From: an uncultured Acidobacteriota bacterium
GTDB taxonomy: Bacteria; Acidobacteriota; UBA6911
Direction of reading: 5' to 3'
NCBI GenBank assembly: GCA_963827655.1
Contig: CAWHCF010000053.1
Span: 38,363-102,362, forward strand
Length of the DNA stretch: 64,000 nucleotides
A program made the translations under genes and the position numbers. This document shows positions 45,628-52,086 of this stretch, piece by piece (position 1 is the stretch's first letter; every line of letters starts with the position of its first letter). A model generated the notes under the pieces. It made no database searches. It saw nothing but the letters and a program-made list of their open reading frames with translations, and had not been told where the DNA came from.

Positions 45628-48042
45628 TCAACGGGGCTGCGTACTCGGCTGTCTCTTATCTCTCGCGGCTTGAAGAGCCTCCAGGGCTGCGCTTCGTAAA
45701 TCCGGCCACTGGGTCTCTGACGCCTTCCGCAAGTGCGTGGTCGCTAATTCGTAAGCGCTTTCGTTGAGCAAGATCATCCCCAGGTGAAAGTGGGACTGAT
45801 GGTCGTTTGGGTCGGCCCGGATCGCGGCCTCAAAATGTCGCCGGGCTTCTGTTTTGTCTCCTTGCCGGAGCAGAGCGAGGCCCAGATTGAAATGGGCTGA
45901 CGCCAACCCGGGCTTCGCCTGGATTGCTTGCCGGTAGAACGCGATCGCCTCGTCCGACCGCCCCTTCTGGACCAGTACCAATCCCAGGCTTGTGGCCGCC
46001 TCGGCTTGCCGGGGATCCAGTTTAAGCGCCGACCGCAACTCGGCCTCAGCCTCTTCGAGCATTCCGTTTTCCGCCAGTGCGCGGCCGTAGTTGTAGCGCG
46101 CGACCGCGTATTCGGGATCGAGCCGGATGGCCTGCCGGAAATGACGCTGGGCCTGCTGGAAATCACCTTGCGCATTCAAGACGTTGGCCAGGTTGTTGTA
46201 CGCCGGGGCAAACCCGGGTCTGGCCCTGATGGCGTTCATCAGGGCGTCGAGCGCGGCGGGCCGGTCGCCGGTACGGAAGAGAGCATTGCCCAGGTTCAGG
46301 TGGGCTTCGGGCAGGTCAGGCGCGACAACCAGGGCGCGGCGAAATGACGTCAGCGCTGCGTCCAGCTTTCCGAGTTCCATGTACGTCGACCCCAACGTAT
46401 TGAGAGTCGCCGGATCGTCGAGTGCATCCCCGCTCGCTGCTTCCAGCGATTCCACTGCGGCGGTCAACCGGCCGAGCTTGCTCAGGGTCAATGCATGCTC
46501 CCTTCGGGCCGAGAGCAAATTCGGGTTGCGGCGGAGCGCTTCCTCATAATAGTGAACCGCCGTTTCGTTTTTTCCGGACTTCACGTAAGCGCTGGCCAGC
46601 TCCAGGTAGAATTCCGCCTGTCGAGGCCTGAAGGCTTCAATCGCCTTGTGCAAGCGGGGAATGCCGTCCTTGAGGTTGGCGCCGTCAGTAACCTGGGCGG
46701 CTGCGAGGTAAAGCTCGGTTTCCGGGCTTTGCGGCAGTCGCGTCGGGTAGAGCAGCGATACTTCTCCCTGGTAGGCGGTTCGGTCGTCGTCGTGAACCTC
46801 CTTGAGCGGCGCCAGCAAGTCGCGATCCGCCTTGCGGCGCTGTATGTAGTGATCCGTCATTGCGACGTGGACCACATCGCTGGTACGGCGCTTTGGCATG
46901 TGGCATCCCACGCAGTCTTCGGTTGCGTTATGGGCGGACGCGTGACAACTTCGGCACGCCTGAACGTAGCGCTGGCGGGCCTCATCAGCGCGCGGCTTCT
47001 CATGGGGGTCGTGACAGGTGGTGCACGTCAGCGCGCCGTTGCTCTTCAGGAAGCATGCCGATTTGAGAAGACGGTACGCGGAATGCGCAATCTCGAACTT
47101 ATCGTCGTATCCGGCGCCCGCTGCATGGTCGAAGTGCAGGATGTAGCTTTCCAGCGGTTCCCCGGGCCGATATGAAAAATAGCCGCGATCATAGCGCCGG
47201 ATCGCATAGGGCAGCCGGCGGCTGGTCGATTCCAGGTGGCACTGCAGGCACACTTCGAGTTGTCTTTCCCGGCTCAGCCGCGCCGGGTTGACAATGGCTT
47301 TCCGGATGGTCTCAGGCGATGCTCCCGTCCGGACGCTCTGAACATGCCCCTGGCCCGGTCCATGACACCTCTGGCAATCAATACCCTCGGGAATCGCTCC
47401 GGGAAGAACAAGCTCTCTCACACTGGGACCCGTGCTGCGTGCAAGCTCCGGGTACGCGTTGTGGCAGAAGAAGCATTCCCGATCGATTCTGCGGCGGAAG
47501 TCCATGTGGTCCGGACGGTCGTAGCCCGGATTCATCCCCCAGAAACCGCCGTTCCCCGCGTACCAGGCTACAGGCAGTTGCACTAATTGACCGTTGGGAG
47601 TCAGGTGCAGATAGGAACGCGCATGATTCCCGGAGCCGAGGACGAAATGAACCTCTTTCTCGATGACGTTCGTTTCTCCGCCGTCGGGCGCGATCTGGCG
47701 CCGGCGCTGGTAATACCGCCCGCCGCGCTCGTACATCGTGTAATGCTGGTCGGAAGCTTCGTGGAAGAAACTGTTGTTTTGCGAGTAATCCTCTACTTTG
47801 TTTTCCGGCCTCGGGCGATAGAAGGACCTTCCCATGCCGGTGCGGCGATAACTTTCGTAGATCTTCTGGTGACAGGCGGCGCAAGCGGCGGGATCGAGAT
47901 ACCCCGCGTCCTCACCGGAAATGAAAAGCCGCCCCGCTCCGGCAAAGGCGGGGAGGCAGACAGCCAGCAAGACCGCCAGGCCTCGCCTGCGCCGCCGCCC
48001 ATTATCGCCGGTGAGACGTGATGCCAAGCGGATAACCTCCAT
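45628..48042 (-). CDS. Multiheme c-type cytochrome fused to TPR repeats
   Basis: Seven CxxCH motifs (CAACH, CFFCH, CQRCH, CLQCH, CTTCH, CRSCH, CVGCH), about ten TPRs, signal peptide. Confidence 0.9.
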   Translation of the reverse strand: MEVIRLASRLTGDNGRRRRRGLAVLLAVCLPAFAGAGRLFISGEDAGYLDPAACAACHQKIYESYRRTGMGRSFYRPRPENKVEDYSQNNSFFHEASDQHYTMYERGGRYYQRRRQIAPDGGETNVIEKEVHFVLGSGNHARSYLHLTPNGQLVQLPVAWYAGNGGFWGMNPGYDRPDHMDFRRRIDRECFFCHNAYPELARSTGPSVRELVLPGAIPEGIDCQRCHGPGQGHVQSVRTGASPETIRKAIVNPARLSRERQLEVCLQCHLESTSRRLPYAIRRYDRGYFSYRPGEPLESYILHFDHAAGAGYDDKFEIAHSAYRLLKSACFLKSNGALTCTTCHDPHEKPRADEARQRYVQACRSCHASAHNATEDCVGCHMPKRRTSDVVHVAMTDHYIQRRKADRDLLAPLKEVHDDDRTAYQGEVSLLYPTRLPQSPETELYLAAAQVTDGANLKDGIPRLHKAIEAFRPRQAEFYLELASAYVKSGKNETAVHYYEEALRRNPNLLSARREHALTLSKLGRLTAAVESLEAASGDALDDPATLNTLGSTYMELGKLDAALTSFRRALVVAPDLPEAHLNLGNALFRTGDRPAALDALMNAIRARPGFAPAYNNLANVLNAQGDFQQAQRHFRQAIRLDPEYAVARYNYGRALAENGMLEEAEAELRSALKLDPRQAEAATSLGLVLVQKGRSDEAIAFYRQAIQAKPGLASAHFNLGLALLRQGDKTEARRHFEAAIRADPNDHQSHFHLGMILLNESAYELATTHLRKASETQWPDLRSAALEALQAARDKRQPSTQPR

Positions 48043-48244
48043 TCACGAACTCCACGGCCTTAAAGGCGTGGCGAAGCAAGCTTCGCGAAACTAGGGCGGT
48101 AGCAAGCTCTTAACCTTACACGCATCTCATCGGTCTCGGCGATTTCGCCCCGGAGGGGCGACGGAAATTAGCCCCGGGCAAGCGAAGCGCAGCCCGGGGT
48201 TACGGGTTTATAGTTAATGCGCCCTGAAGGTCCTGTGTTGTGAG

Positions 48245-49594
48245 TCAAGCAATTTTTTTTAGTTTGGGGTCCACTTTTTTCCACAGTGCACGGTTGTCCT
48301 TGTGCTGACGAACAAAAGTTTTCCACAGGCCCGCGTGATGGATTCGGATCTGTTCAATCATTCGATTTACATCGTACATCTGGTTTCGGGCGACCAGTGC
48401 CCAGATGACATGGGCCATTCTGTTCATCTCAGCGCAGACGGCCTGCTGGGGACACAGGCCGCGCTGGATCATTCGCCACTTATGAAACGCAAAGGCGGGG
48501 TCAAAGTTGCAGGCGGTCTGCGTAACCAGATACAGCATAGCTCGTTGCTTGTGGTCGCCCCGGGCGGTCAGATGTGTTTTGTTAAGCGAAGTTCCCGTTT
48601 GGGTCCGCTCAGGACAACTGGCCCATTGAGCCGACAAAGCCTTGCCCGAAACGAACCGGGCGAGTCCCCGTGTGCCCAGCACCAGAGTGGCGGCAGAGAC
48701 TATGGCGATGCCGGGGATACTGTCGAGCAGCTCGACCTGGCGCGCCGCAGACACGCCTTCTTCGGGTGTTTCGGTCTCGGCTTTCGCCTGTTGTACATAG
48801 GCAACCAGGGTCCGCTCTATATAGGCCAACCTCTTCTCCAGCAACTCGAGCTGAGCGAGCAGAAAAACCATGGCCTCGGCGTCATCGTCCTCGCCGGCGC
48901 TGGCTATCGACTGCTTAGCCAAGAGGATCAGTTGTTGAGCCCGTTCTACTCCGAGAGACCGACCCCGCCGCTCAGACTTCACTCGAGCCAAAGACAGGGC
49001 CTGGCGACGGGCCGCACGTCGTGCGGTGGGAATCTCACTCAACACCGCCCGAGCGAGCTTTGCGAACGGGTCGGCGAAAACCTGGGTGAACTCTGGAAAG
49101 CACACCAGCACTTGCTCGTGAATCCGGTTTTTGGTTGCCGCCAGATCCTGGACCAAACGCTGACGTTCACTAATCACACGAGTCATCGCCTGGGCTTTGG
49201 GATCGTAATCGAAGGCCTCCAGCCGACGTTCGTATACCCGGGTAAACTCCGCCACATGATCGGAGTCGGACCCATCGGTTTGATCGCGGCGCGGGTTGGG
49301 ACCTCCAAAGCGCGCGCTCTGGCCCGGATTGACCCGAATCAGCCTGATATTGCGATCCTGACAGGTCAACTTCCATTCTCCAAGCCAGGCGATCAGGTTG
49401 TCGTCTATCCGTCCGCTGGCCTCGATTCCGATCGTGAGATCCCCCTCTGGCAAGACAGACTTCAGACTCTCGAATCCCTCGCGCGACATGTCAAACTGCC
49501 GTGCTTTCCAAACCCTTTCTCCGGTCGAATGCACCAGAGTTGCTGCAAAAAAAGACTTGCCTGGGTCAATGCCCAGCACGAAACTAGCTGTCAT
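48245..49594 (-). CDS. IS110 DEDD recombinase/transposase, 449 aa
   Basis: LGIDPGK, IGIEASG, TDGSD (DEDD), LLDSIPGI, CPERTQTG, RGD. RBS aaggag. Confidence 0.95.
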   Translation of the reverse strand: MTASFVLGIDPGKSFFAATLVHSTGERVWKARQFDMSREGFESLKSVLPEGDLTIGIEASGRIDDNLIAWLGEWKLTCQDRNIRLIRVNPGQSARFGGPNPRRDQTDGSDSDHVAEFTRVYERRLEAFDYDPKAQAMTRVISERQRLVQDLAATKNRIHEQVLVCFPEFTQVFADPFAKLARAVLSEIPTARRAARRQALSLARVKSERRGRSLGVERAQQLILLAKQSIASAGEDDDAEAMVFLLAQLELLEKRLAYIERTLVAYVQQAKAETETPEEGVSAARQVELLDSIPGIAIVSAATLVLGTRGLARFVSGKALSAQWASCPERTQTGTSLNKTHLTARGDHKQRAMLYLVTQTACNFDPAFAFHKWRMIQRGLCPQQAVCAEMNRMAHVIWALVARNQMYDVNRMIEQIRIHHAGLWKTFVRQHKDNRALWKKVDPKLKKIA

Positions 49595-49621
49595 GGGAGC
49601 CCTCCTTGGGTTATCCCGCAT

Positions 49622-49877
49622 CCGGGTCTCTCACCCTTGCGGCGATCCGCCTTAGTCAAGCGCGGTCCTGTACGAGATGAACCCGGTCTACGGGCGGAAG
49701 AGCGACCTTCAGGACGAGCTCGAGGCTCACGGGGCGCACGCTTTCTTCCGCCCGTATTCTTTTGCGGACTTAAAATGATCCCACGGATTTCCACATTTCC
49801 ACAGCAATTCACAAAGAGAAAGAAGCAAAGAGAAAGCTACTACTACTACTATTGATATTCTTACTTAATTGGGTGCC
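49622..49877 (-). ncRNA. Predicted bridge RNA (target-binding loop 49689-49756, donor-binding loop 49622-49686)
   Basis: Two stem/internal-loop/stem structures whose loops match the target and donor junction sequences. The 5' end is inferred from the junction promoter. Confidence 0.85.
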
Positions 49878-49883
49878 ACAATG

Positions 49884-49889
49884 ATCATA
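49884..49889 (-). promoter_or_regulatory. -10 box (TATGAT) of a split promoter; -35 box TTGACT at 48243-48248
   Basis: The circle junction reads TTGACT-cacaacacaggaccttg(17 nt)-TATGAT. Confidence 0.85.
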
Positions 49890-50164
49890 CAAGGGGCGCC
49901 GGAGCAATGAGGGGCCGTGTCCAGCGCCCCTCCGGGGCGCGTCTCTTCGCCTGTCTGTGACCGGGGGCAGCGCTCCGCTTGCCCCCGGCTAATTTCCTTC
50001 GCCCTTTCAGGGCGCGAGCTGGCGTAACCATTCGTTCTGGACCAATACAAGATGCGTGTAAGGTTCAGAGCCAACCTACGATCCCCCAATGGCCGTTGTG
50101 GGATTCAAAACTCGAGAAAGTCCGGCACAATGACTCTCACGGTGTCACCTGCCTACCCGGCCAA

Positions 50165-51652
50165 CTACCGGACCCTCTTGGCCCGCATGGTCCGCCCACC
50201 TTGCTCGATAATCAAGGCGGCCACTCCCCTGTCCTCACCCAGTTCGAAGCGGTGCCCGATACCATTGTTGGAGAAGTATTTTATTTCCGACTCGGGCAAC
50301 AGCTCAAACCTGGATTGCCCTTGTCCTTGCGCCCAGAGCCGTCCCTCTTCCGTCGTCAGCGTGATCTTGAAGCCGTCATCCAGTTCGTAAAGACCCGCGT
50401 ACTTCTGGTAGACGGCGGGGTCAACTTTGGCCAGGACGCGCTCCGGTTCCAGGTAGTCCGGCCAGTTGTATTCACGCGCGATCGAGCGAATCAGTTCATG
50501 CGCCAGCGGCATCGCGCGGTTCGCGTTCAGCATCACCACGGCGCCACGCCCCCCCTGGCAGTACGCCGTGAAGAAGGCCTCGAAACCTTCGTCCACGCCG
50601 CCGTGGCTGAAGCGCGCCGACTCCTTGTCCGCGTTATCCAGCGCCGGGCCGAGCCCGTGACTTCCCTTTTGCACGGTCACCATCTGCCGGGCCATCTCGC
50701 GCGATAGAATTTTCGACTGGCCAGCCAGCGCGCGCTGCACCTCGATGGCGTAGCGCGCGAGGTCCGAGGGCGTCGTCCACAGCCCGGCGGCGGCCATCTC
50801 GGGATAGATGTGCCAGCGGCCTTTGACCTTGTCGCCGTTCCGGCCATGCGCGGTGGCGGCCGAGGCTTCGAGCGACTTCGGCAAGGGGTTTTCGTAAGTG
50901 CTCTGCCGCATGCCGGCAGGCTCGAAGACAAGCTCGCGCGTCAGTTCGGGGAACGACTTTCCCGTCACGTCCATGCACAACTGTTGCATCACGGTGTAGC
51001 CGCCGCCCGAGTACCGCCATCGGCTGCCCGGCGCGACGTCAACCCGTATCGCCGCGGTGTTGGCCGGCTTCTCGCCGTTCAAAACCTGAACCAGCGTCGG
51101 CATCGGCGCGTCCACCGCGTAGCCGGGGAACCCGTGCACAGTCAGCCCTGCGCTATGGCTGAGCAGCCCGCGCAGCGTGACCTTCTTCTCCTTGGTGAAC
51201 TCATTCTCCGGTACCTTCCAGGTCTTCAACTTCCGGTTCACGTCCTCATCGAGGTCGAGCTTGCCCTGCTCGACCAGGCGGAGCGCCGCCAGCGCGGCCA
51301 CGGGCTTGCTGATCGAGCCGGCCAGGAAGAGCGTGTCGGAGGTGACTGGCTTGCCGCCGTCTTTTTCGACGACTCCGTAACCGCGCGCCCATTCGATCTT
51401 GCCGTCGTTGATAACGGCGACGCTCAGGCCGGGAACTTTGTAATGAGCTATGCGATCGGTGAGCTTCATCGCCGTGGTCTGGCCCTTGATCATGACGGCG
51501 GGCAGCAGCCCGTTCTCAACGCGTTGAATCCGCTCGGCGACGCCGGCCTGGTCCTGCGCCGCGACGGGCGCCGCATCCGACGACGCGCGACAAGCGTCGA
51601 GACTGAGCGCGGCCAGCGTGAGCAACCAAACGAGTCTGAGTTTCATGGTCAT
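50165..51652 (-). CDS. Serine hydrolase, beta-lactamase/AmpC-like, with C-terminal DUF3471-like domain
   Basis: GSISK (SxxK), LLSHSAG, RYSGGG, FSHGG. Lipoprotein-like signal. Confidence 0.9.
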   Translation of the reverse strand: MTMKLRLVWLLTLAALSLDACRASSDAAPVAAQDQAGVAERIQRVENGLLPAVMIKGQTTAMKLTDRIAHYKVPGLSVAVINDGKIEWARGYGVVEKDGGKPVTSDTLFLAGSISKPVAALAALRLVEQGKLDLDEDVNRKLKTWKVPENEFTKEKKVTLRGLLSHSAGLTVHGFPGYAVDAPMPTLVQVLNGEKPANTAAIRVDVAPGSRWRYSGGGYTVMQQLCMDVTGKSFPELTRELVFEPAGMRQSTYENPLPKSLEASAATAHGRNGDKVKGRWHIYPEMAAAGLWTTPSDLARYAIEVQRALAGQSKILSREMARQMVTVQKGSHGLGPALDNADKESARFSHGGVDEGFEAFFTAYCQGGRGAVVMLNANRAMPLAHELIRSIAREYNWPDYLEPERVLAKVDPAVYQKYAGLYELDDGFKITLTTEEGRLWAQGQGQSRFELLPESEIKYFSNNGIGHRFELGEDRGVAALIIEQGGRTMRAKRVR

Positions 51653-52086
51653 GCCTCGTGTGCACAAAAAATCATGGCCCAATGTAGCTTCGTGGTTACC
51701 ACAAATCCAATCGTCCGTCGTACTGAACCTGGCGGAACTACGCGTGTGCTCCTTAACTTGCCTTTATCGAAGCAACAATCACCCCAGCGACGAGCATTGC
51801 CAGTCCAAGCCGGGACAACCGATCATAGTAGTCAGAGGAGCGATCCTCGAATAGCGACCCTGGTCCCGACTATCCTTAACAAATCCGACATATGATACCC
51901 CCCTTTCATGATTTCCGTGTTAACTCGGAAAACCGGAATCTCCTGGGATTCACCCGGGTGCTTTCCTTCAGTTGTGGGGCTATGGTCCCCCTTGGTCACA
52001 CTGTGGAGCTATGGGCTTGAGAATTTCGGCGACAGTCATCGATGAAGTGGTAAGGAGTATTTCGAAGCTTCGAGGTTGCCCGACAG

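Follow-up and report, generated by a model that had tools for sequence, protein, structure and literature searches.

We conclude, with a probability of about 0.93, that positions 48228-49893 of the window (the whole 64,000-nt stretch analysed here) form an insertion sequence of the IS110 group, intact and autonomous, with a two-loop bridge RNA in its left end and a recombinase guided by that RNA. As such it is a true member of a class, the bridge-RNA elements, published since 2024 and already mined on a very large scale. The element lies on the minus strand, as do all features described below unless noted otherwise. It spans 48228-49893 with both copies of a CT core included, or 1,664 bp counting one CT, and consists of a 297-nt non-coding left end (LE, 49595-49891), which contains the bridge RNA and can be aligned across 25 distinct left ends, a gene for a 449-aa DEDD/Tnp recombinase (48245-49594), and a 15-nt right end (RE) beyond the stop codon.

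Both boundaries can be read from the junction letters. At the left junction, the host sequence GGCGCCC (left target, LT, positions 1-7; 49900-49894) is followed by CT (49893-49892) and TGTAT (49891-49887). At the right junction, ACAGGAC (left donor, LD, the final bases of the right end; 48236-48230) is followed by CT (48229-48228) and host TCAGG (right target, RT; 48227-48223). The reconstructed target is thus GGCGCCCCTTCAGG (GGCGCCC-CT-TCAGG) and the reconstructed circle junction is ACAGGACCTTGTAT (ACAGGAC-CT-TGTAT), and both reproduce those of a preliminary description of this DNA. The span given there, 48227-49899, does hold the element, but it wrongly includes flanking DNA, 6 nt on the left and 1 nt on the right. 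The core was assigned by analogy with the CT core of IS621 at positions 8-9, and its exact boundary is ambiguous within CCTT.

The recombinase comprises a RuvC-like DEDD domain, a long coiled coil with a helical insert, a Tnp domain and a C-terminal extension. It matches PF01548 with 68.2 bits (cut-off 29; E 9.1e-19) and PF02371 with 44.2 bits (cut-off 21.3; E 2.6e-11). With the NCBIfam equivalog model NF033542 (IS110 family RNA-guided transposase) it scores 128.7 bits (E 2.7e-37), below the 140-bit cut-off; judged by sequence, we take it for a clear relative of this family, though under the equivalog threshold. A structure search with an AlphaFold model (pLDDT 83.4) returned the IS621 and ISCro4 recombinases as best matches (E 3.5e-11, TM 0.66-0.68 by target length, 17% identity). 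The DEDD residues are D10, E58, D107 and D110; they are present in 106 of 139 aligned representatives, this protein included. Together with an RNA in the long left end, the two Pfam domains and these structural matches bear out the original reading of the locus as an IS110 element with a bridge RNA.

The structured part of the RNA (49622-49803) lies in the long left end and the right end is short, which is the layout of the IS110 group. The IS1111 group, with its seekRNA, also has a DEDD recombinase and a guide RNA bridging donor and target, but its members, as described in the available part of PMC11208160, differ in having a long right end that bears the RNA and subterminal inverted repeats of 7-17 bp. 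Given the 15-nt right end and the position of the RNA, we rejected an assignment to that group. A subterminal inverted repeat CACAA/TTGTG, picked out by eye, was also set aside, being asymmetric about the core (8 nt versus 10 nt). An antisense open reading frame of 517 aa (48302-49855) has no Pfam family and is taken as a by-product of GC-rich coding sequence.

The RNA contains two loops. The target-binding loop (TBL, 49689-49756) is closed by a perfect 13-bp stem, TACGGGCGGAAGA (49756-49744) with TCTTCCGCCCGTA (49701-49689), which encloses GCGCCCC (49737-49731) and CCTGAAGG (49713-49706), the two being separated by a TGAGC/GCTCG hairpin. The donor-binding loop (DBL), closing stems included, occupies 49622-49686; its stem CCGGGT/ACCCGG (49686-49681/49627-49622) encloses ACAGGACC (49671-49664) and CAAGG (49639-49635). 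Both stems and the strands within them lie where the preliminary description had put them. That description had also called for folding and covariance analysis. Both stems are present in the minimum-free-energy fold, but the fold energy is not unusual (z -0.8). Covariation, on the other hand, upheld the stems: across the 25 distinct left ends 98.6% of cells are paired in the stems, and 13 pairs have changed on both sides, against 2.2 (s.d. 1.0) in shuffles, none of 500 shuffles reaching 13, and 0-4 in slid controls. Six such pairs fall in the TBL stem (helix 3) and five in the DBL stems (helix 5).

Other parts of the left end are also conserved. A putative 5' stem-loop, UGUGG/CCGCA around a variable hairpin (49763-49803, helix 2), is weakly indicated by 96.8% of cells paired with one-sided changes only. 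The variable inner hairpin within it, inspected by eye, shows compensatory changes in relatives. A near-invariant pyrimidine-rich block (49788-49836), which holds TTTCTCTTT twice and TGTGGAAA twice, is kept even in a relative of 40% protein identity (L043); the left-end alignment gave no supported pairing for it and the promoter scan described below no sigma70-like site. A ribosome-binding site, AGGAGG (49601-49606), lies in a conserved small hairpin (helices 6-7 of the alignment). An Rfam search of 47900-50300 (E up to 1) assigned no family to the left end and placed Acido-Lenti-1 in the flanks only.

All four loop strands match the DNA that they would be expected to read, as had been claimed for both target and donor. 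The left target guide (LTG, UGCGCCCCG, 49730-49738) matches LT plus the core C through its positions 2-8. The right target guide (RTG, CCUGAAG, 49707-49713) is the reverse complement of the core CT plus TCAGG, the left donor guide (LDG, ACAGGACC, 49664-49671) equals LD plus the core C, and the right donor guide (RDG, CAAG, 49636-49639), invariant among relatives, is the reverse complement of CT plus TG. In this copy, position 9 of both LTG and LDG (G in each) is unpaired with the core T. A longer, discontiguous RDG pairing, between GAUC 5' of CAAGG and a left-end GATC, was considered and rejected: the RNA bases are invariant, and the DNA varies (ATC, CTC, TTC, TTG).

Short matches of this kind could arise by chance, with the left end being a structured 5' UTR only. 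We therefore shuffled the 297-nt left end 5,000 times with dinucleotides preserved and counted matches at least as long as those observed. An RDG-like 5-mer appeared in 1,776 of 5,000 shuffles, so that the RDG match is uninformative on its own; an LTG-like 7-mer appeared in 285, an RTG-like 8-mer in 49 and an LDG-like 8-mer in 16. The frequency of the first two, and the ordinary fold energy, are what an explanation by chance has in its favor. Against it, no shuffle of the 5,000 yielded all four matches jointly, and both the covariation of guides with flanks and the handshake pattern described below contradict it. We regard chance as scarcely credible.

The guide–flank covariation was scored in about 30 metagenomic relatives, counted as unique guide–flank pairs; one locus (L041), in which a 1-nt deletion at the left-end terminus misplaced the pattern match, was left out of the counts. 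For RT5 versus RTG, 48 of 50 positions match in unique pairs, compared with 29.1 (s.d. 3.3) after shuffling. For LT9 versus LTG, the corresponding count is 159 of 207, compared with 137.3 (s.d. 4.0). On neither side did any of 10,000 shuffles reach the observed value. Failure of guides to covary with targets in homologs had been named beforehand as evidence against a bridge RNA; the target guides do covary. The left target guide as originally drawn matches in the window, but LT positions 1-2 are not tracked in relatives (6 of 23 and 8 of 23), and the effective LTG is therefore positions 3-9, which do track the flank. Some natural fits are poor, with 3 of 9 guide positions matching in register in L011 and 5 of 9 in L012. 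On the donor side, variation amounts to a single compensatory event, in L029, where ACGGGACC stands in both guide and right end. That the element has its own target specificity, as first proposed, is shown by this natural covariation; for example, a relative with 96% protein identity (L009) carries the RTG CCCGAAGG beside the flank TCGGG, where the window has CCTGAAGG beside TCAGG. Nature has in effect run a reprogramming experiment for free, and the element adds a bridge-RNA system with a fully readable guide code and its own 12-bp specificity.

The natural site is itself a hairpin. The crossover falls in the loop of GCGCCC-CTTCA-GGGCGC, a GC-rich hairpin at the center of a dispersed repeat, some 313 bp long, with Acido-Lenti-1 motifs, and relatives are likewise inserted in short GC-rich hairpins. 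A working IS110 element might thus choose its target mainly through a protein that reads the shape of the repeat's hairpin, the loop–flank complementarity being a by-product of a palindrome-like, GC-rich target. LT positions 3-5 and 7, which hardly vary in our sample, fit such a view, as does a 2026 preprint in which, in its available part, a target stem-loop adds specificity for ISPpu10 (bioRxiv 10.64898/2026.03.19.712850). The positions that do vary, however, follow the guides base by base: RT positions 1, 3 and 5, which vary among four letters, match the guide in 9-10 of 10 unique pairs, and LT position 6, which varies between G and C, matches in 23 of 23. Hairpin shape by itself predicts no letter at these positions. 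We therefore consider recognition mainly by shape very unlikely. Dual recognition of sequence and structure is compatible with guidance by the bridge RNA and does not replace it.

Outside the guides proper, two-base handshake guides were located by the rule described for IS621, where, in the available text of PMC11208160 and PMC11208158, such guides pair with non-cognate DNA. For the TBL handshake guide, GU (49705-49706), the partners are C and A at donor positions 7 and 6; for the DBL handshake guide, GG (49634-49635), they are the two Cs at positions 7 and 6 of the target. Among 21 guide sets, the TBL guide pairs with donor position 7 in 21 and position 6 in 20, and the DBL guide pairs with target position 7 in 21 and position 6 in 18; pairing with position 6 of the cognate DNA (the target for TBL, the donor for DBL) occurs in 0 of 21 for each. 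The DBL guide also tracks LT position 6 (Fisher p 0.0025). A departure from IS621 is that donor and target share a C at position 7, which lets the first handshake base pair with either. Full handshake complementarity to non-cognate DNA is the arrangement that improved IS621 in vitro, according to the same parts of those papers; the window element has it naturally on both loops.

The genome holds a second copy of the element, 100% identical over 1,673 nt (contigs C53 and C50) and inserted in a different copy of this host repeat. The flanks of the two copies are alike and not identical, the C50 flank being 92.6-97.2% identical to that of the window; that the element copies are identical while their host-repeat flanks differ indicates recent insertion. 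Both occupied sites have the same 14-mer halves and a duplicated core dinucleotide. The target 14-mer, to which LT and RT belong, occurs uninterrupted twice in the genome, in unoccupied copies of the repeat (0.21 expected), and one DNA contig of run X5 likewise shows an empty-site form. Guide positions 3-14 give a 12-mer that is present 14 times in the genome (2.4 expected), with 11 of these sites inside the repeat. The left half of the repeat (49894-50071) has 33 genomic matches of at least 100 nt and, at 49975-50014, resembles Acido-Lenti-1 weakly (24.2 bits, short of the gathering score); the right half (48093-48227) has 29 matches of at least 100 nt and Acido-Lenti-1 at 48146-48199 (39.3 bits; gathering score 37).

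Expression of the element would be tied to its excision. The right end holds a -35 hexamer, TTGACT (48243-48248), which overlaps the stop codon TGA (48247-48245), and the left end holds a -10 hexamer, TATGAT (49884-49889); only at the circle junction would they form a promoter. The rebuilt RE-LE junction promoter of the window is TTGACT-N17-TATGAT, known as sequence only. TTGAC or TTGAT, N17 and TATGNT recur across the RE-LE junction in 26 of 27 parsed loci, the one exception (L035) being a parser misreading. A sigma70-type consensus scan of 48100-50100 found one site within the gene and none in the left end; with the consensus used, no internal promoter for the integrated copy was found. Two RNA-library contigs cover the left end (X15, 49597-49910; X16, 49521-49790), one extending 17 nt into the flank, and may reflect DNA carry-over or read-through; all sequencing runs compared were assembled contigs, from which RNA ends, strand or level cannot be read.

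The copies could instead be relics, their complementarity left over from a once-active element, for instance one whose enzyme was disabled by a change at the nucleophile. The residue aligned to the IS621 nucleophile S241 is indeed a threonine, Thr333, followed by the conserved Gly334 (G242 column). Also in keeping with a relic, only two copies exist despite 11 unoccupied perfect 12-mer sites in the repeat (2 of about 13 are occupied), and the circle junction, right end back to left end, was found neither in assembled contigs of four runs nor in the genome assembly. The identity of the two copies at differing flanks, however, argues for recent activity. In addition, each of the 39 clade members, which span 41-98% identity, has Thr in this column, an uninterrupted full-length reading frame and an intact DEDD motif; near-identical left ends sit at different flanks (L011, L012 and L013), and within the Thr clade the guides have changed in step with their targets. 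We consider decay to a relic highly improbable.

By analogy with the IS621 literature, we propose the following mechanism for the bridge-RNA element. The recombinase would use the left-end bridge RNA to pair the RE-LE junction, ACAGGAC-CT-TGTAT, in a synaptic complex with a site in the chromosome whose consensus here is CGCCC-CT-TCAGG, and strands would be exchanged at the CT core in an order like that of IS621. Excision to a circle would join the right-end -35 to the left-end -10, and the junction promoter so formed would switch on both the RNA and the recombinase. A covalent protein–DNA intermediate would here most likely involve Thr333.

In its overall plan the element closely resembles IS621 of E. 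coli as presented in the available parts of PMC11208160 (Durrant et al. 2024) and PMC11208158 (Hiraizumi et al. 2024). It shares with IS621 the RNA in a long left end, the short right end, and the target loop placed before the donor loop, which, with the CT core at positions 8-9, is the IS621 order that had been recognized earlier. In both elements, LTG and LDG run in the same sense as the left halves, and RTG and RDG are reverse complements of the core plus right halves; the LDG spans positions 1-8, a two-base handshake guide follows each of RTG and RDG on the 3' side, a sigma70-type promoter is rebuilt at the RE-LE junction, and the DEDD motif has the same D-x2-D spacing. The IS621 donor ACAGTATCTTGTAT, as given in the preliminary description, is found in the methods of PMC13396178, and 12 of its 14 positions are identical to the window donor ACAGGACCTTGTAT.

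The two elements also differ. The proteins are 17% identical in a structural alignment (phmmer E 6.9e-5), and the window recombinase has 449 aa versus 326 aa in IS621, with a helical insert at the coiled-coil tip (about 167-227), a further short one near 275-283 and about 38 additional residues at the C terminus; it has Thr333-Gly334 in place of S241-G242. As far as those same sources go, the RTG is 7 nt (positions 8-14) versus 4 nt in IS621, the LTG is effectively positions 3-9 versus 1-9, and the left end of 297 nt has about 120 nt upstream of the target loop, including the pyrimidine-rich block, whereas the IS621 RNA is 177 nt. ISCro4 (PDB 9t56, synaptic complex), likened here by protein alone, is the best sequence match among solved structures (E 4.9e-7) and has the same fold (E 3.7e-11), but has 341 aa and a YESGSS serine loop as in IS621. 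In target choice the element resembles ISPpu10 and other REP-targeting IS110 elements of Pseudomonas putida (bioRxiv 10.64898/2026.03.19.712850; ISPpu9, PMC12288879), whose insertions, in the available parts of these reports, all lie in one conserved intergenic repeat with a GC-rich stem-loop target. Compared with these, the crossover here is within the hairpin loop itself, and the host repeat contains Acido-Lenti-1 and belongs to a different phylum.

The clade with this threonine comprises about 17 clusters at 50% identity, mostly from soil and sediment metagenomes. Among the 139 representatives, the S241 column holds Thr in 18 and Ser in 119. Thr333 bears a hydroxyl without being a serine, and some Thr-bearing members lack Ser336, which lies three residues further along. 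DEDD is invariant in 39 of 39 clade members. The tree (FastTree) covers the first 60 rows by E-value, with the other 67 of 127 full-length rows, all Ser-type or more distant, outside it. A scan of genome contigs with the single recombinase protein gave no relative, a scan with the protein alignment gave one partial match of 38% identity (L008), which was left out of the analysis, and, besides its own genome, a phylum sample of 401 genomes contained only two matching genomes, at 24-25% identity, too distant for covariation.

We put at about even odds a joint reading in which the Thr clade uses threonine as the DNA-attacking residue (with a covalent 5' link), is active in nature, has swapped Ser and Thr at least twice, bears the pyrimidine-rich 5' extension of about 50 nt in its bridge RNA as a possible clade-specific RNA–protein module, and has specialized on the Acido-Lenti-1 repeat as a landing pad. 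The threonine at the catalytic serine column, the pyrimidine-rich block and the hairpin landing site in the Acido-Lenti-1 repeat are features that the preliminary description did not contain; the clade may already be listed in the supplementary tables of PMC11208160 or the database of the 2026 preprint. Acido-Lenti-1, catalogued in 2010 and since then as probably a non-coding RNA, and described even in 2026 as "of unknown function", here belongs to a dispersed repeat, present in about 30 copies, in which these IS110 insertions are found. If Thr333 is the nucleophile, the chemistry of the family would be less strict than its description by a "conserved serine", and natural Ser/Thr swaps would offer a handle on the cleavage and religation rates that set bridge-editing efficiency.

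The IS110-group element lies on the minus strand at 48228-49893, both copies of its CT core being included, and is 1,664 bp long when one CT is counted. It consists of a non-coding left end of 297 nt (49891-49595) and a recombinase ORF of 449 aa (49594-48245), which is preceded by a ribosome-binding site, AGGAGG, at 49606-49601 and whose stop codon is only 15 nt from the core. A 458-aa version starting at the ATG at 49621 finds no support, as the starts of relatives coincide with the 449-aa form. A 517-aa open frame antisense to the entire gene (48302-49855, plus strand) matches no Pfam family; GC-rich coding sequence most likely accounts for it. The left junction reads GGCGCCC-CT-TGTAT and the right junction ACAGGAC-CT-TCAGG; the target GGCGCCCCTTCAGG and the donor junction ACAGGACCTTGTAT proposed in the preliminary description both follow from them. 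The two stems and four guide segments described there are likewise present at their positions. The outer coordinates given there reach 6 nt into the left flank and 1 nt into the right. Together with its host repeat, the element fills the space between the genes for a protein of 804 aa that combines CXXCH cytochrome motifs with numerous TPR repeats (45628-48042, minus) and a 505-aa beta-lactamase-fold serine hydrolase with DUF3471 (50165-51682, minus).

Within this single sequence, 5,000 shuffles of the left end that preserved dinucleotides never reproduced together the matches of all four guides, left and right for the target (LTG, RTG) and for the donor (LDG, RDG). By itself, the 5-nt RDG match is frequent (1,776/5,000 shuffles) and the 7-nt LTG match is not rare (285/5,000), and the fold energy of the region is ordinary (z -0.8). 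Thus the weight of the argument rests on comparative data. Among 401 genomes sampled from the same phylum, only two others contained matches, at 24-25% identity. A large protein database returned 102 matches at E <=1e-10, 87 of them at 41-98% identity, with the next ones falling to <=29%; these 87 are mostly full-length (440-460 aa), with 7 shorter partial sequences. With an alignment of 39 of these proteins we collected 40 metagenome loci, 32 of which extend over the N-terminus and the DNA upstream of it.

Across the left-end alignment, variation in the first loop falls nearly entirely in the 9 bases after GCG and the 8 bases before UCGC, and there is hardly any change in the second loop or at the element termini. 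Counting every distinct guide-flank pair once and excluding one locus (L041), the five flank bases after the core matched the reverse complement of RTG at 48 of 50 positions (shuffled pairing 29.1, sd 3.3; 0/10,000 as high). The nine bases before TGTATG matched LTG at 159 of 207 (shuffled 137.3, sd 4.0; 0/10,000). Because LTG positions 1 and 2 match at chance level (6/23 and 8/23) and positions 3-9 match the flank, including the G/C-variable position 6 in 23/23 pairs, the effective target footprint is 12 bp, made up of LTG positions 3-9 and RTG positions 8-14. At left-junction position 8, agreement with LTG in 17/23 pairs would be compatible with mismatched cores resolved either way. In L009, a relative with 96% protein identity, one RTG base differs from that of the window and the corresponding flank base differs likewise. 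L029, the only natural donor-side variant, carries the same A-to-G change in LDG and in the right end. Two near-identical elements, L011 and L012 (left ends of 308 and 307 nt), fit their left junctions poorly, at 3/9 and 5/9 LTG positions or out of register, and look like natural off-target or half-matched insertions.

The bridge-RNA sequence also carries handshake guides, described by Hiraizumi et al. (PMC11208158) as the two bases 3' of RTG and of RDG. Once strands have been exchanged, these bases pair with the non-cognate DNA at its positions 7 and 6; pairing to the cognate DNA is reported there to inhibit exchange. Among 21 distinct guide sets, the bases 3' of RDG are complementary to the target at position 7 in all 21 and at position 6 in 18; for the bases 3' of RTG and the donor, the counts are 21 at position 7 and 20 at position 6. 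Cognate position 6 is paired in 0/21 for either loop. Position 7 is C in donor and target alike, and therefore its handshake base can pair with either. The base after RDG tracks the G/C state of left-target position 6 (4/6 vs 0/15; Fisher p 0.0025, a generous value given that the sequences are related).

RNAalifold on 25 distinct left ends recovered, for the target loop, the 13-bp closing stem and the GAGC/GCUC hairpin inside it, for the donor loop, a closing stem in two parts, and, over the ribosome-binding site, two small hairpins. The consensus helices are paired in 98.6% of cells, with two-sided changes in 13 pairs vs 2.2 (sd 1.0) in shuffles (0/500) and 0-4 in slid controls; the 5' stem at 49803-49763 shows one-sided changes only. 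The two small conserved hairpins, GGGA/UCCC and CCC/GGG (49595-49620, minus), cover the AGGAGG just upstream of the start codon and could hold down recombinase translation. The left end also contains an (AGT)5 / TAGTAG run at 49838-49852 (minus), part of which relatives keep as GTAGTAG.

A near-invariant pyrimidine-rich block at 49836-49788 (minus), comprising TTTCTCTTT twice and then TGTGGAAA twice, lies upstream of the target loop, after the predicted start of a junction transcript. Its conservation extends down to 40% protein identity, and no supported base pairing was found for it in the left-end alignment. A promoter scan found no sigma70-like site inside the left end, this block included. 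In a circular form, TTGACT of the right end (48248-48243, minus, overlapping the stop codon) and TATGAT of the left end (49889-49884, minus) would be brought 17 nt apart to form a junction promoter. Judged from sequence, 26 of 27 parsed loci have this layout, and IS621 is described with the same arrangement (PMC11208160, PMC11208158). No circle junction was seen in the metagenome contigs examined. Soil metagenomes from 13 studies, 6 RNA libraries among them, contain the element or close relatives of it; the RNA-library contigs cover the left end, a coverage that cannot show transcription, ends or strand.

Both IS110 Pfam domains of the recombinase score over the Pfam cut-offs, and the NCBIfam "IS110 family RNA-guided transposase" model gives 128.7 bits, under its 140-bit cut-off. 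Sequence matches among solved structures were only the bridge recombinases ISCro4 (E 4.9e-7) and IS621 (E 6.9e-5). For an AlphaFold model made from 39 relatives (mean pLDDT 83.4), the same two were the best structural matches (E ~1e-11, TM 0.66-0.68 by target length, 17% identity); next came proteins of the Nop5 family, in keeping with the published link between IS110 and Nop5. D10, E58, D107 and D110 make up the DEDD motif. Compared with IS621, whose domains are given as RuvC 1-122, coiled coil 123-188 and Tnp 189-326 (PMC11208158/PMC11208160), the recombinase has an extra helical insert at the coiled-coil tip, shared with many ~400-aa IS110 proteins, a short insert near 275-283 that is particular to its clade, and an extended C-terminus.

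At the column of the catalytic serine, the recombinase departs from the family. Its TQ-T-G-TS is aligned by phmmer with the YE-S-G-SS loop of IS621 and ISCro4, where the aligned S and G are S241 and G242 by a count along the IS621 chain; G242 is named as conserved in the structure paper (PMC11208158). The T-G-T-S motif (residues 333-336, ~48587-48598, minus) thus aligns to S241-G242-S-S. Thr333, Gly334 and Ser336 are each invariant in 39/39 clade members, and 13 of 13 more typical IS110 proteins have Ser at the Thr333 column. Across 139 aligned representatives from the best 150 clusters, Thr is rare at this column (18), most having Ser (119), with one Phe and one gap; the next residue is Gly in 136. 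A FastTree covering the first 60 of 127 full-length rows places the Thr rows in one supported group of 19 (15 Thr, 4 Ser), requiring at least two changes. In two Thr-bearing representatives, Gln or Thr takes the place of Ser336, which makes Thr333 the better nucleophile candidate. A literature search on the IS110 catalytic serine and bridge recombinases, limited to main texts, found no mention of threonine, and the word is absent from the IS110-Nop5 preprint.

The genome (53 contigs, 8.18 Mb) holds a second copy on another contig, 100% identical across 1,673 nt. Its flanks belong to the same repeat family as those in the window, yet are 97.2% and 92.6% identical on the two sides. Identical copies in differing flanks of one family point to two separate recent insertions and not to a segmental duplication. 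The interrupted host repeat is dispersed and ~313 bp long (48093-48227 and 49894-50071), its left and right halves having 33 and 29 genomic matches of >=100 nt. The uninterrupted 14-mer target occurs twice in the genome (0.21 expected), each time within an unoccupied repeat copy. For the 12-mer covered by guide positions 3-14 there are 14 sites against 2.4 expected, and 11 of these lie inside the repeat. The donor-junction 14-mer was not found in the genome assembly, allowing <=1 mismatch. The uninterrupted target form is also present in one DNA contig of metagenome run X5 and in loose ends of runs X1 and X5.

Within the host repeat, Rfam matches to Acido-Lenti-1 (RF01687) flank the insertion on both sides, at 48146-48199 (minus, 39.3 bits) and 49975-50014 (plus, 24.2 bits). 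Flanks of 10 of 20 related metagenome loci also contain Acido-Lenti-1, typically ~33 nt past the right end. A 2010 study includes the motif in its Table 1 as a probable non-coding RNA found in Acidobacteria and Lentisphaerae. The repeat that carries it has inverted-repeat ends and ~30 copies in this genome; rather than an sRNA gene standing on its own, Acido-Lenti-1 may be a repeat of the REP or MITE kind.

As far as sequence can tell, the element has all the features that define IS110-group bridge elements, the identity of the nucleophile residue being the sole exception: Thr here, Ser in the IS110 family description. The bridge-RNA system class is already known, having been in print since 2024. 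Because a 2026 preprint clustered 181,180 IS110-adjacent intergenic sequences, the Thr clade may well be within an existing catalogue. We conclude that the predicted mechanism is ordinary, the catalytic residue unusual and the RNA extended, and that the element has a clear ecological link to a long-unexplained repeat, the one containing Acido-Lenti-1.
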